This document shows positions 9,133-13,323 of a stretch of DNA of 30,664 bases, one piece after another. A program made the position numbers and the translations under genes. The stretch comes from an uncultured Dehalococcoidales bacterium (GTDB taxonomy: Bacteria > Chloroflexota > Dehalococcoidia > GIF9 > AB-539-J10). Below the pieces are notes generated by a model. That model saw only the letters and a program-made list of their open reading frames with translations. It was not told the origin of the DNA and searched no databases. The DNA lies in contig CAYHBC010000004.1 in NCBI GenBank assembly GCA_964354775.1, positions 1 to 30,664 on the forward strand, given 5' to 3'. The stretch's first letter is position 1. Every line of letters starts with the position of its first letter.

Positions 9133-10305
9133 ATGAAACTGCTAGTTCTAGGTCTGGGGCAGTGTGGCGGTAGGATTGCGGATAAGTTTGCGCGGCTGAA
9201 CAAGAGGGCGCAGGCGCTACGGGGAATTGACATAATCGTCGATGCCTTTGCCATTAACACCGATGTTGCCGATTTAAGCGGACTAATCCATGTCCCGGCG
9301 GATTATAAGCATAGAATTATCGTTGGGGGACGAAAGGCAAGTGGACACGGAGTAGGCAAGATAAGCGAGCTTGGCGCTGAGATAGCGCACGAAGATAGCG
9401 ATAAGATTGTAGACGCGATAAGAACGGCGCAACGGTTCCCCGAGACCGACGCCTTTTTGCTGATTGCCGGCGCTTCCGGGGGCACAGGCTCCGGAGCAAT
9501 AGGGGTATTAACCCAACACTTGAGAGAGCGATATGCTGGTAAACCGCTTTACAATCTCCTCGTTCTACCTTTTCAGCAGGAGGAAACGACGGAAACAAGA
9601 ACCATATATAACACCGCCGTATGCCTTAAATCAGCTTATCTGGTGGCTGATGCCATATTCCTCGTCGATAACCAGAGGTATATTGAGAAAAGCGCCTCCA
9701 TCTCGGAGAACCTCGCCCGGATTAATGCCCGGATAGTTGAGCCATTTTACAATTTACTCTGCGCTGGTGAAGAGATAAGACCGAAATATGTCGGGGCAAA
9801 GGTGCTCGACGCCGGAGATATAATACAGACTGCGGTAGGCTGGACAGTAATCGGCGAGGGTAAATCGTTGCTCTCCAGAAAGAAGTTCCCCTTTGAAAAG
9901 ACACGCCATTTCCGGAATAAGGAGGCGGAGACCAATAAAGGGGCTCACGCTATGGACAAAGCCCTGAGCGAGCTGTCATTGGCCTGTAATACTAAAGAGG
10001 CAAGGAGGGCTCTCTATCTCCTCTCGGCACCACCCCAGGAAATGAATATGGAGATAATCAAGGAGCTTGGAGAGAACCTGAGAGCAGTAGCCCCGGATGC
10101 CTTGATACGGAGTGGTGACTACCCCAGACCAAAAGGTTCGCTGGAGGTTACCGTAATTCTCTCTGAAATTCTGGCTCTGCGCAAAGTTACCGCCTACTTC
10201 AGCAAGGCGCTGGAGCTGATTTCTACTATGAAAGCGCGACGGGGAGTCCAATACGCCGGTAGAGAACTTGAGGAAATGTTCGGCGATATTCCGGTGTTAC
10301 TGTAA
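9133..10305 (+). CDS. Tubulin/FtsZ-superfamily GTPase, CetZ (archaeal FtsZ3)-like rather than canonical FtsZ
   Basis: GLGQCGGRIA (T1), AINT..ADL, GHGVG...ELGAEIAHED (T3), AGASGGTGSG (signature loop), LVLP..E, LVDN, INARIV..F..L.CAGE, VLDAGDIIQT (T7). These match the CetZ pattern (GQAGG, GHGVG..NELGAEIAEED, L.GAGE, VVDSSEIINT), not the FtsZ pattern (GGGGGN, GLGAG, INLDFADV). Confidence 0.85.
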   Translation: MKLLVLGLGQCGGRIADKFARLNKRAQALRGIDIIVDAFAINTDVADLSGLIHVPADYKHRIIVGGRKASGHGVGKISELGAEIAHEDSDKIVDAIRTAQRFPETDAFLLIAGASGGTGSGAIGVLTQHLRERYAGKPLYNLLVLPFQQEETTETRTIYNTAVCLKSAYLVADAIFLVDNQRYIEKSASISENLARINARIVEPFYNLLCAGEEIRPKYVGAKVLDAGDIIQTAVGWTVIGEGKSLLSRKKFPFEKTRHFRNKEAETNKGAHAMDKALSELSLACNTKEARRALYLLSAPPQEMNMEIIKELGENLRAVAPDALIRSGDYPRPKGSLEVTVILSEILALRKVTAYFSKALELISTMKARRGVQYAGRELEEMFGDIPVLL

Positions 10306-10856: not shown

Positions 10857-13133
10857 CTACTTTTGACCTGTTTCATCACCCTCTTCTTCTTCCTCTTCCC
10901 CTTCCTCTTCCCCTTCCCCCTCCTCTTCTTCTTCTACTTCCTCAGCATGTTTATCCTTGTTAGCCGCATACATTTTAGCTAAGAAATCCAGACGCGCCTC
11001 AATTCCTCCGGGGGACTTCTTGGGCACCGCTCGCTCTTCCCCGCCACTACTTTCAGCCCCGGTCAGCATCTCCTCCAACGCCTCCGGCGAAATTTCACCA
11101 GCTTCCAGGGCTGGTTTTCTTATCTTAGCCGCCTCGCTTACCGATTTCTCAAATAGTTGCATCGCTGCTCTTACTGCGCTCCGGGCTGATTTGCTTATTC
11201 CCTCAGCCTTACTAAGCGCTTCCTCAAATGTCCTTACTGATGATATCACCGCCTCCCTGGCTACCCTTATTGATGCATCAGTAGCCTCCTTTGCCATTTG
11301 AGCTGATTCCTCGGCGCTTTGCCGGGCAGCCTGACTTATTTGCTCCGCCTTGCTTATTGCTTCCTGAGACGCCTTCTTCGTCTCCTCAGCAATCTTTTTG
11401 GTAGCCCGGCTTATTTCCTCCGCGCGGCTCACTACTTCCCGGGATGCTGCCTTCGCTTCTTCAGCAGTTCTGGCGTTAACCTTGCTTATTTCCTCCGCCC
11501 TGCTTATTGCTTCCCGGGAGGCTATCTTCGCTTCCTCAGCAACCTCTTTTGCCTCTCGCCCCACTCCCTCAGCTTTGCTTATTGCCTCCCGAGACGCCTT
11601 ATCCGCTCCTTCAGCGGTCCCTATCGCCATTTTACTCATTTCCTCCGCCCTGCTTATCGCTTTTTCAAACGAGCTTACCGACGCTTTAACGGTGGCTATC
11701 GCCCTTTGGCTTATTTCCTCGGCTCGGCTGACCCCTTCCTCAGTGGCTTTAGTTGATTTCTCCATCGCCACCATGGCTAATCTAATTGATTCTTCAGCCC
11801 GGCTTAGCGCTTCCTGAAATGTTTTTTGAGCTTCTTCGGTAGTTTCCAGGGCAGCCTGGCTTATCTCCTCCGTTCTGGCGACAGCCTCCTTGCTGGCCTG
11901 GCTGATTTCCTCAGCCCGGACGCTTGCCTCCTGTGAAATTCGCTTGGCTTCCTCCGCCCTATCCATAGCCCCTTGAGACACCCTCTTCGCTTCTTCGGCA
12001 GCCTCCACGCCTGCCTGGACTGCTGCCTCTGCTTTGCTCATAGCCTTTTGTGATGACTTTCGTGCTTCTTCAGCTTTGCTTATAGCCTCCTGGGATGCCT
12101 GCTTCGCTTCCGCAGCAACTTCCAGGCTCGCCTGGTTGATTTCTTCCGCTTTAGTGGTAGCCTCTTGAGCGGCAAGCATCGCTTCCGAAGCAGCCTCCAC
12201 AGCCGTCCGGCTCAATTCCTCGGCTCGAGCTATTGCCTCTTGAGATGCCTTCTTCGTTCTCCTAGCAGTTTCCAGGGCTGCCTGACTTACCTCTTCAGCC
12301 CTGGCTATTACCTCCTGGGATGTCTTTGCCGATGTCTCAGTAGTCTCTACCGCCCTTCGGCTTAGCACATCAGCTTGGCTTATCATCTCCCCTAATGTCT
12401 TTGTCGCTGCCTCAGACGCCTCCATAGCCGTTCGGCTGACTTTTCCAGCATTGCTTATTCCTTCCTTAGATGCCCTTGCCGCAGCATCAATTGCCTCCAT
12501 GGCTAAGGCGATTGATGCCTCAGCCCGGCTCATTGCTTCCTGGGATGTTCTTATCGCGGTATCGGCTGCCTCTCGGGACTCCTGGCTTATCCTTTCAGCC
12601 TCGCTTACCACTTGTTGTGATGCTGCTCGCGCTTCCTCAGCAGCTTCCCGGGCTATTTGACTTACTCGCTCAGCCTCCTCCAGCGCCTTCAATGAAGTCT
12701 CTTTCGCCTCTTCAGCAGTTCCCCGGGCAGACTGACTCACCTCATCGGCTTTGCTCACCCTCTCCAGGGATGCCTTTACCGCCGCCTCCAGTTTGCTTAC
12801 CGTTTCTTCAAAGGCCTTTGCCGAGGCTTCCGAAGCCTCGGTGGCGAGCTTGATTGACGCTTCAGCCCGGTCTACTGCTTCCCGGGATGCTTTTGTTGCT
12901 CCTTCAGCAATCTCCCTGGCTTCCTGGCTTACCCTCTCCGCCTCCCTTATCGCTTCCTCTAAGGTTCTCTTCGCTTCCTCGGCAATCTTTGTAGCTGCCT
13001 CTCCTGACTCCAAAGCTCTGATTAGCGCCTGCTGCGATATGCCGGTCGCTTCCTCAGCAACCTTCTCCGCCGCCCGCCTCATCGCCTCGGCTCTAGCTAC
13101 TGCCTCTTCAAATGTGCTGGTTTTGTTTCGCAT
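10857..13133 (-). CDS. Hypothetical 758-aa Ala/Glu/Ser-rich repetitive coiled-coil protein with an acidic C-terminal tail
   Basis: 2.3-kb uninterrupted ORF; ATG 13133 is preferred over GTG 13142; 25-residue periodicity; no Pro/Cys/Trp in the repeat region; no signal peptide or TM segment; poly-Glu tail. Confidence 0.85.
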   Translation of the reverse strand: MRNKTSTFEEAVARAEAMRRAAEKVAEEATGISQQALIRALESGEAATKIAEEAKRTLEEAIREAERVSQEAREIAEGATKASREAVDRAEASIKLATEASEASAKAFEETVSKLEAAVKASLERVSKADEVSQSARGTAEEAKETSLKALEEAERVSQIAREAAEEARAASQQVVSEAERISQESREAADTAIRTSQEAMSRAEASIALAMEAIDAAARASKEGISNAGKVSRTAMEASEAATKTLGEMISQADVLSRRAVETTETSAKTSQEVIARAEEVSQAALETARRTKKASQEAIARAEELSRTAVEAASEAMLAAQEATTKAEEINQASLEVAAEAKQASQEAISKAEEARKSSQKAMSKAEAAVQAGVEAAEEAKRVSQGAMDRAEEAKRISQEASVRAEEISQASKEAVARTEEISQAALETTEEAQKTFQEALSRAEESIRLAMVAMEKSTKATEEGVSRAEEISQRAIATVKASVSSFEKAISRAEEMSKMAIGTAEGADKASREAISKAEGVGREAKEVAEEAKIASREAISRAEEISKVNARTAEEAKAASREVVSRAEEISRATKKIAEETKKASQEAISKAEQISQAARQSAEESAQMAKEATDASIRVAREAVISSVRTFEEALSKAEGISKSARSAVRAAMQLFEKSVSEAAKIRKPALEAGEISPEALEEMLTGAESSGGEERAVPKKSPGGIEARLDFLAKMYAANKDKHAEEVEEEEEGEGEEEGEEEEEEGDETGQK
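11116..13112 (-). repeat. Degenerate coding repeat array: about 23 x 25 aa (75 bp) with four 14-aa units and one 22-aa unit
   Basis: Hand parsing, e.g. SREAISRAEEISKVNARTAEEAKAA / SREVVSRAEEISRATKKIAEETKKA / SQEAISKAEQISQAARQSAEESAQM. Confidence 0.85.
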
Positions 13134-13208
13134 ACCCTTCACCCTCGTGAGCCACTTAGTATTCTACTCCTTCTCCCCCTTATTTTACCAAAAACTCAAG
13201 CTCAATAG

Positions 13209-13282
13209 TGGGCCATTGTGGACTCGAACCACAGACCCCGGCCTTATCAGGACCGTGCTCTAACCAGCTGAGCTAATGGCCC
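13209..13282 (-). tRNA. tRNA-Ile (GAT), 3' CCA not encoded
   Basis: GGGCCAT acceptor stem, GCTC/GAGC D-stem, CGGTC-CTGATAA-GGCCG anticodon arm, TGTGG-TTCGAGT-CCACA T arm, ATGGCCC-A followed by CTA. Confidence 0.97.
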
Positions 13283-13293
13283 TTATCAACATA

Positions 13294-13323
13294 AATATAT
13301 CTTTCATTGCTAGGTAGTGTCAA
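13294..13323 (-). promoter_or_regulatory. sigma70-type promoter of tRNA-Ile
   Basis: Minus strand TTGACA (13323-13318), 18 bp, TATATT (13299-13294), 11 nt upstream of the tRNA. Confidence 0.65.

Follow-up and report, generated by a model that had tools for sequence, protein, structure and literature searches.

A conserved helical rod protein with a strict 25-residue repeat, encoded beside a CetZ-like tubulin gene in Dehalococcoidia

Background

Dehalococcoidia, a group to which organohalide respirers belong, occur widely in sediments and aquifers. How does such a cell hold a shape when, as in the genome studied here, no SEDS protein, no MraY and no convincing MreB is found? The question is raised by a 30,664-nucleotide stretch of DNA from an uncultured Dehalococcoidales bacterium (GenBank assembly GCA_964354775.1, contig CAYHBC010000004.1, positions 1 to 30,664), the whole of which is referred to here as the window. 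At 10857..13133 on the minus strand the window carries a gene for a long protein composed almost entirely of a 25-residue repeat, here called the rod protein. Beside it lie a gene for a CetZ-like member of the tubulin/FtsZ family and a gene for a 168-residue repeat protein. These genes belong to a concrete and testable module of three to four genes that addresses the question of shape.

The crescentin, FilP and Scy rods and the CetZ tubulins of archaea are already known. The literature searched gave no account of a long rod that keeps strictly to a 25/7 period and is co-inherited with a bacterial CetZ-like tubulin. A first-pass annotation, made from the letters of the window alone, had read the gene as a long helical array and had offered a filament, a molecular ruler or tether, or an amphipathic surface-binding protein as its function. 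Is the array a genuine and conserved feature? Does it form an extended rod, or does it fold back on itself? And is it connected with the tubulin encoded next to it? We find that the array is real and conserved, and that the gene codes for a helical rod protein with a strict 25-residue repeat, about 100 nm long if fully extended. The protein probably belongs to a bacterial cytoskeleton that has not been described. On balance, the form that we consider probable is a low-twist homomeric coiled-coil rod with a C-terminal docking end, an accessory of a CetZ-like filament system.

Results and discussion

A 25-residue period along the whole array

The coding sequence, taken from the list of open reading frames (ORFs) and its translation, runs for 758 amino acids from an ATG at 13133 to the stop codon at 10857-10859. 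Residue numbers used here are those of P0001, the 761-residue ORF that begins at an in-frame GTG at 13142 (10857..13142, minus strand). The repeat array covers residues 13-665 (11148..13106, minus strand). It was delimited by a parse with a self hidden Markov model (self-HMM), by autocorrelation and Fourier analysis, by the family logo and by the phase of the apolar stripe.

The top lag in the BLOSUM62 autocorrelation is 25, with z = 22.2 and 38% identity, followed by lags of 50 (z = 17.8), 75 (12.3), 14 (11.0) and 11 (9.2). The maximum z in 300 shuffles was 4.0. Fourier analysis of hydrophobicity, a check that the first-pass annotation had proposed, gave a single dominant peak at 3.56 residues, with a power of 694, where shuffled sequences reached at most 104. 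The peak is close to 25/7, or 3.571. Both measures bear out the array of about 670 residues with a 25-residue period that had been parsed by hand.

Between residues 13 and 665 the self-HMM places unit starts 25 residues apart 20 times. The remaining spacings are 14 (three times), one pair of 17 and 22, and a stretch of 11, 7 and 29 near the C-terminal end. The hand count of 23 units of 25 residues, four of 14 and one of 22 came near this parse without matching it exactly. Residues 4-675 (11116..13133 of the window) contain no Pro, Cys or Trp, as had been noted. Ala makes up 24% of this region, Glu 18% and Ser 12%. The protein has four prolines, every one of them after residue 675.

An unbroken apolar stripe accompanies the repeat. 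Its amplitude is 0.34-0.57 in all 50-residue segments of residues 1-690, against a 95th percentile of 0.24 in shuffled sequences. The phase of the stripe drifts smoothly, with jumps between adjacent segments that never exceed about 20 degrees, and its main shift falls where three 14-residue units sit.

With a 25/7 period, one stutter is distributed over three heptads, which is within the range accessible to coiled coils (PMC4786415). The array has the features of such a non-heptad coiled coil: a continuous seam, a period in the range from 3.5 to about 3.63, and insertions and deletions of helix-compatible length. A canonical heptad coiled coil, with a period of 3.5 (7/2), was rejected, since the peak lies at 3.56 here and at 3.56-3.60 in related rod proteins and the repeat of 25 is made up as 7+7+11. 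The rod protein is a natural and very regular case of a rare coiled-coil periodicity with an almost all-Ala/Ser core, and it could be used as a model of helical assemblies with low twist.

Relatives of the rod protein

Relatives were found at 53 loci of species-representative genomes, all of them metagenome-assembled. Two patterns were used in the search, E[EG][TIM][STG]KSA[RK][RK]A for the kink motif described below and a second for the C-terminal helix. The labels of the loci are mostly Dehalococcoidia, Dehalococcoidales, Dehalococcoidaceae or Chloroflexota, with one Gemmatimonadales; three are labelled only as 'bacterium' or belong to a metagenome-assembled genome named Dehalococcoides sp. 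Apart from the single Gemmatimonadales label and the few broader ones, the rod protein was found in this search only in Dehalococcoidia. Cultured Dehalococcoides and Dehalogenimonas are not among these loci, and no search was aimed at them.

The period is conserved. The top lag is 25 in all ten orthologues (10/10) and at 49 of the 53 loci; in the remaining four it is 50, 47 or, on a cut contig, 22. Unit starts in the family are 25 residues apart in 658 cases and otherwise 47, 36, 58, 39 or 50. Among the gaps of pairwise alignments, lengths of 11, 22, 7, 25, 14 and 18 stand out as peaks, with the limits that the pairs are non-independent and that the repeat itself biases alignments toward such lengths. 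Together with the unbroken stripe, these peaks agree with the first-pass claim that the 25/7 register is kept through insertions and deletions. The length of the protein is not conserved. Open frames of the relatives range from 468 to 754 residues, a spread in rod length that a fixed ruler common to all would not show.

The window protein has every element of the rod family: the N-terminal unit, the 25-residue array, the kink, the RLDFLAxMY helix, the acidic tail and the gene neighbours. The hallmarks of the family are F-E-x-A-V-A-R-A-E, E-E-T-G-K-S-A-R-R-A and R-L-D-F-L-A-x-M-Y.

The protein has few other relations. Pfam and NCBIfam hold no family for it even at E = 1, and neither they nor the PDB gave the full-length match to a characterised family that the first-pass annotation had named as a refutation. 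A word-based search of 5.8 billion proteins returned one match, a histidine kinase. An HMMER profile search of 1.84 billion representatives returned 207, mostly short fragments of the rod family. The top long HMMER matches, P0005, P0015 and P0055, were rejected as relatives, as they carry unrelated 25-residue repeats that are Pro-rich or belong to DUF4116. Neighbours in the ESM Atlas are hypothetical Chloroflexota proteins, and in one neighbour cluster 12% of the members are Phasin_2.

Extended rod or folded bundle

Compared with most of its orthologues, the window protein has extra segments of 25, 67 and about 113 residues, all of them one-sided insertions, and in the alignment of orthologues no conserved Gly or Pro was found within the rod. 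The case for an extended rod is made chiefly by these insertions and by the lack of a conserved turn. A chain folded back into an antiparallel bundle would call for loops and for insertions in pairs, whereas an in-register homomer or a single helix requires neither. At 0.15 nm per residue, about 650 residues would extend for 95-100 nm, in line with the 100 nm estimated at first pass.

Could the protein instead fold into a compact bundle of antiparallel helices, as in the cytoplasmic part of a chemoreceptor or in spectrin-like repeats, with no 100-nm rod at all? The full-length AlphaFold2 (AF2) model, built on 11 sequences, is helical throughout but breaks at residues of about 116-128, 228-282, 387-392 and 517-531, and the weak matches of a profile search of PDB sequences (E 3e-6 to 3e-3) are chemoreceptors and designed helical bundles. 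A bundle is nevertheless very improbable. The stripe phase is continuous across every predicted break, no Gly or Pro turn is conserved, the insertions are one-sided and of helical lengths, and the model has no confident tertiary packing, with a predicted template modelling score (pTM) of 0.23 and a predicted local distance difference test (pLDDT) of 47.8. The signalling domain of methyl-accepting chemotaxis proteins was rejected for the same absence of a conserved turn and the same one-sided insertions; its PDB-profile match reached an E of only 1.6e-3, and there was no Pfam MCPsignal match.

Anatomy of the unit

A family logo was drawn from 897 units of 52 family members. The consensus of the unit is S/F-Q-E-A-I-S-R-A-E-E-I-S-K-x-A-K-E-A-A-E-a-S-x-R-A. 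On a 25/7 wheel, 11 of the 25 positions make one face of 0-144 degrees in which polar or charged residues are at most 8%. Large residues are nearly confined to positions 5 and 11 (Ile/Val), at the two edges of this uncharged face, and position 1 is Phe in one quarter of the units. Small residues account for 75-90% at positions 4, 8, 15, 18, 19, 22 and 25. The stripe is almost wholly Ala, Ser and Thr, as was to be expected from the earlier remark that small residues occupy the core positions. Selection for small residues, and not merely for apolar ones, indicates close helix-helix packing.

The charges lie on the remaining faces and are ordered as well. In the window rod, 91 pairs of opposite charge stand four residues apart, at i to i+4 (z = 10, with a median z of 9.6 across the family), a network such as is found in single alpha-helix (ER/K) domains. 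This ladder of Glu with Lys or Arg should make the helix intrinsically stable and stiff. Glu, Asp, Lys and Arg together make up about 34% of the rod, its net charge is about -23, and basic residues at positions 7 and 16 flank the apolar face.

The same ladder lends itself to another explanation, in which a lone alpha-helix, monomeric and stabilised by salt bridges, serves as a stiff spacer, with its stripe lying along a partner, for instance the 168-residue protein or the surface of a CetZ-like filament. Besides the charge pairs, the high Ala content, the poorly hydrophobic stripe, a period of 3.59-3.60 in one subclade (near that of an undistorted helix) and the co-encoded 168-residue protein would all suit a single helix. 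We hold it to be rather unlikely, since the charged fraction is well under that of classical ER/K helices, a conserved uncharged face of 144 degrees with selection for small residues typifies tight helix-helix packing, and a partner of 168 residues would cover a small fraction of a 650-residue stripe. A composition of the ER/K type lacking an apolar seam was rejected outright on the content of charged residues, the 24% Ala and the uncharged face of 11 of the 25 positions.

A stripe flanked by basic residues may also recall class A amphipathic helices. Could the rod be an amphipathic surface binder of the type of late embryogenesis abundant (LEA) group 3 proteins, alpha-synuclein, apolipoproteins or phasins, with the stripe facing a membrane or another surface? 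The stripe is nearly straight (period 3.57-3.60), which would fit, as would the 12% of Phasin_2 members in one ESM Atlas cluster. The composition of the protein speaks against this function and weakens the surface binder offered by the first-pass annotation to the point of being very unlikely: the stripe of Ala, Ser and Thr is almost without Leu, Phe or Trp, and the net charge, with an acidic tail in addition, is unsuited to anionic bacterial membranes. The families LEA group 3 (LEA_4, PF02987), apolipoprotein (PF01442) and phasin (PF09361) were rejected, with no Pfam match at E = 1 and a unit of 25 residues, not 11 or 22.

The ends of the protein

Conservation is highest in the first unit (F-E-x-A-V-A-R-A-E-x-L-S) and over the final 120 residues. 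The rod proper (11181..13106, minus strand), as defined by family conservation and the AF2 helix break, ends at a kink motif, AE-G-ISKSARSA at residues 644-654 (11181-11213, minus strand). This is the most conserved stretch of the family. Its family form is A-E-E-T-G-K-S-A-R-R-A, in which E644, S649, A650 and A653 are invariant (numbering of alignment A1).

An AF2 model of the last 170 residues, made on the 48-sequence alignment A2, has an overall pLDDT of 72. The rod-end helix (residues 593-645) has a pLDDT above 90, and the helix breaks at residues 646-650, within the kink motif. Four further features follow on the minus strand. The first is a 30-residue terminal helix beyond the kink, residues 651-680 (11103..11192), which AF2 on alignment A2 predicts at positions 60-89 of the modelled segment, with a pLDDT of 83-86. 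Next is a flexible linker with Pro and Gly, residues 681-713 (11004..11102), where pLDDT is below 50 and conservation is poor except for one Pro. The third, recognised by conservation and AF2, is an amphipathic C-terminal helix, I-E-A-R-L-D-F-L-A-K-M-Y, at residues 714-733 (10944..11003). The last, evident in the translation, is an acidic tail of residues 734-761 (10860..10943), mostly Glu. The tails of orthologues are shorter and likewise acidic.

In the RLDFLAKMY helix, R, L, L and Y are invariant across the 48 sequences. The model extends the helix over residues 713-741, with a pLDDT of about 80, between the disordered linker with its Pro and the disordered acidic tail. A Foldseek search of the C-terminal model against the PDB found no match. 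Docking peptides are usually tethered, conserved amphipathic helices. The RLDFLAKMY helix, as modelled, is a candidate docking peptide for a partner.

Linkage to a CetZ-like tubulin and a small repeat gene

What might the partner be? The gene for P0002 (9133..10305, plus strand) is convergent with both repeat-protein genes and encodes a CetZ-like tubulin/FtsZ-family GTPase of 390 residues, with Pfam matches to Tubulin (PF00091, E 8e-30) and CetZ_C (PF21011, E 1e-15). A CetZ-like gene is present at 53 of the 53 genome loci, and at every relative's locus as well. A homologue of the 168-residue gene is present at 52 of them (it was not detected in L042) and likewise at the relatives' loci. A second CetZ-like copy occurs at 17 of the 53 (L039, L045-L047, L051-L053, L055-L059, L061, L067-L069 and L071), and in 16 of these it is an upstream, divergent paralogue with a clade of its own. 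The convergent and divergent arrangements might be taken for rearrangements of one another. This was rejected, because all high-scoring segment pairs and the tree show the convergent downstream tubulin wherever the locus reaches. Rods of the subclade with the upstream paralogue are longer (about 700-750 residues) and richer in hendecads (lags 36 and 47), with a period near 3.59.

All 70 of the 70 rod-adjacent CetZ-like copies fall in one clade with a support of 0.92 (FastTree, midpoint-rooted). The 14 unlinked CetZ-like genes, from families f2 and f3 and a second paralogue of family f1, fall outside it, and no periodic helical ORF was found within 3.5 kb of these 14. In f1 a rod match is present in 14 of the 15 genomes that have the orthologous tubulin, and in the fifteenth the contig ends there; a strong rod match is present in none of the nine genomes (0/9) that lack it. 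The genomes of f1 are related, and this co-occurrence is therefore a pattern and not a statistic.

From the co-inheritance of the rod, the hendecad protein and one CetZ-like clade, we infer that the rod is an accessory of a CetZ-like filament system. Of the functions named at first pass, a filament, ruler or tether, the linkage points to a tubulin-associated rod or tether more than to a free-standing ruler.

The C-terminus of P0002 (window 10267-10305) reads F-G-D-I-P-V-L-L. An ending of D/G-I-P-x-L-L/I is present in 70 of the 70 rod-linked CetZ-like copies, while most unlinked copies of the sister families have L-P-S/T-L-I. The conserved C-terminal peptide of FtsZ is D-I-P-x-F-L, to which the end of P0002 is similar. 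By this resemblance it may be a partner-binding peptide.

A proposed architecture

We favour a homomeric coiled-coil rod of the following kind. The protein would be a cytoplasmic, nearly pure alpha-helical rod of some 650 residues, 95-100 nm at full extension. On one face a continuous Ala/Ser/Thr stripe, with Ile or Val at positions 5 and 11, would recur every 25 residues, or seven turns. Along this stripe the chains of a homomeric coiled coil, probably two parallel strands, would pack in register and with low twist. The C-terminal end, comprising the kink, the linker, the RLDFLAKMY helix and the acidic tail, would dock onto a partner, and the rod would act as a tether, spacer or cross-linker in the CetZ-like filament system. 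That system would be separate from the FtsZ/FtsA division apparatus and may shape these bacteria.

Several points weigh against this proposal. A core of nearly all Ala and Ser, with two beta-branched residues per 25, would make a weak two-stranded seam, and the i to i+4 salt-bridge ladder would permit a lone monomeric helix. That the rod associates with itself is something we infer from the pattern of its residues. The full-length AF2 model is of low confidence, as given above. A two-copy complex prediction of residues 516-669 (alignment A1), run without controls, scored 0.01 against a mark of 0.42 and is counted neither for nor against binding. The rod and tubulin genes are convergent and are not co-transcribed. 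CetZ-like genes of f2 and f3 have no rod partner, so the tubulin does not strictly need the rod. A sequence-data search listed no RNA data sets that carry the rod gene; the DNA data sets that match are freshwater sediment metagenomes, each with at most 0.47 of the sampled words.

Comparison with known systems

FilP and Scy of Streptomyces may be the closest functional analogues of the rod protein, judged by likeness of form. Like it, these proteins and crescentin are very long, almost purely helical, lineage-specific and variable in length among relatives. Theirs is a cytoskeletal role, and for the rod protein such a role would follow from gene linkage. FilP and Scy also share with it a non-heptad periodicity, of heptads and hendecads, and Ala-rich cores (PMC9858780). 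In dimeric coiled coils that contain hendecads, FilP and Scy among them, Ala-rich cores are explained by steric reasons (PMC9858780). The rod protein differs from the two in its strict 25-residue unit (7+7+11; 3.57) in place of hendecads or 51-residue repeats, in its linkage to a tubulin-family gene, and in its tethered, conserved C-terminal helix with an acidic tail, and there is no sequence similarity.

Is the rod protein then a self-assembling, intermediate-filament-like protein of the crescentin, FilP or Scy type, linked to the tubulin by a shared process and not by direct binding? The long non-heptad rod and the Ala-rich core would be as in FilP and Scy (PMC9858780). In addition, the width of the apolar face would admit more than one helix-helix interface, and the conserved first unit and C-terminal end could make head-tail contacts. 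We think this improbable, since a DivIVA-like head motif is absent, lateral or head-tail assembly is without indication, and so tight a co-inheritance with a single tubulin clade speaks for something closer than a loose association. Proteins of the DivIVA-like superfamily carry a GYDxxEVD motif at the N-terminus, after which comes a dimeric coiled coil of heptads (PMC9858780). Membership in DivIVA, GpsB, FilP or Scy was rejected: the rod protein has no GYD head motif, its one Tyr is Y725, and Pfam and NCBIfam gave no DivIVA match.

A second likeness is to histidine kinases. Three metagenomic kinases, P0018, P0004 and P0131, have a similar Ala/Glu unit, S-Q-E-A-I-x-K-A-E-E, in the linker between PAS and HisKA. 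The order of parts is receiver, PAS, a 25/14 Ala/Glu repeat of about 300 residues, HisKA and HATPase (L074:1975-4605). These linkers have a 25-residue period with 14-residue variants and a hydrophobic period of 3.56-3.58, and BLASTP aligns them with the rod at 34-37% identity over 240-290 residues (E = 1e-12). In the kinases the repeat is only this linker and the stripe residues are larger (Leu, Val), whereas in the rod protein the repeat is the whole protein. The similarity may reflect convergent repeat composition instead of common descent. The position between PAS and HisKA in histidine kinases is a parallel dimeric helix. By analogy with the kinases, the 25/14 unit would be able to serve as a two-stranded parallel coiled coil, as the homomeric rod would require.

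Other companions of cytoskeletal polymers, such as tropomyosin, ZapB and EzrA, are likewise periodic or long and helical, and have no sequence or Pfam relation to the rod protein. In protofilaments of the tubulin/FtsZ family the subunit spacing is about 4.0-4.4 nm. One repeat per tubulin subunit, in the way that tropomyosin follows actin, was rejected, as a 25-residue unit is about 3.7 nm long. With archaeal CetZ (CetZ1 and CetZ2 of Haloferax volcanii) the neighbour of the rod gene shares the Tubulin and CetZ_C domains. A survey has recorded CetZ-like genes in Chloroflexota-Dehalococcoidia; it mentions no coiled-coil protein as a partner of the Dehalococcoidia genes and treats the genomic contexts of CetZ-like genes as mutually unrelated (PMC9871819).

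Cellular setting

The genome that contains the window is 1.14 Mb in size and 95.7% complete. In a survey of cytoskeletal and wall genes, which concerned contigs C58, C3 and C20, three tubulin-family genes were found: FtsZ, which adjoins an FtsA-like gene on C58, a second CetZ-like gene on contig 3 (C3:2694-3233) and the CetZ-like gene of the window. No convincing MreB gene was found in this genome; two partial model matches fall in a 637-residue ORF (likely Hsp70) and in the FtsA-like gene. SEDS proteins (FtsW/RodA) and MraY had no match in the genome at its completeness of 95.7%. To our knowledge the Dehalococcoidia lack peptidoglycan, and the SEDS and MraY result fits. With no wall or MreB genes found, the shape of the cell would rest on something else.

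Archaeal CetZ is shape-determining. On this model the rod, the 168-residue protein and one or two CetZ-like tubulins could form a tubulin-based, shape-determining skeleton in wall-less bacteria, with the rod as a length-defined strut or tether held by its C-terminal helix. We put this forward as speculation, and an unlikely one. Were it true, the rod would join filaments to one another or to the envelope, and lineage-specific rod lengths (about 70-110 nm) would set a dimension of the cell.

Start codon and surrounding features

Orthologues begin with M-x6-F-E-x-A-V, and a GAGGG lies 9-13 nucleotides upstream of the ATG at 13133. On these two grounds this ATG, which was also the end coordinate given by the first-pass annotation, is the likely start, and the product probably has 758 residues. 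The N-terminus is M-R-N-K-T-S-T-F-E-E-A-V.

Upstream of the rod gene by 75 nucleotides, on the same strand, is a tRNA-Ile (GAT) at 13208..13282 (minus strand), identified by Rfam and ARAGORN. It may share a transcript with the rod gene. Upstream of the tRNA, at 13294..13323 (minus strand), a consensus scan alone picked out a promoter-like TTGACA-18-TATATT with 11 of 12 matches. Such sites were as frequent in the scan as in shuffled sequences (1 found, 1.0 expected). By its position this site before the tRNA-Ile may also drive the rod gene.

One more metagenomic protein has the period of the rod. P0137 (1195 residues) shows autocorrelation at lag 25 and a hydrophobic period of 3.57 residues (power 638), with no Pfam match. 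Its unit sequence differs, and it may represent a second, unrelated 25/7 family.

Immediately downstream of the rod gene is the gene for the 168-residue protein, P0003 (10328..10834, minus strand), whose translation has 11/22-residue (hendecad) repeats. From its placement this gene is probably co-transcribed with the rod gene. P0003 contains an exact tandem duplication of 22 residues, in which K-A-Y-G-E-S-I-A-Q-A-L-R-I-R-E-E-A-E-E-R-A-R occurs twice. Across its family a C-terminal W-x-I-F/Y-x-K is conserved, and the number of 11/22-residue units differs between orthologues.

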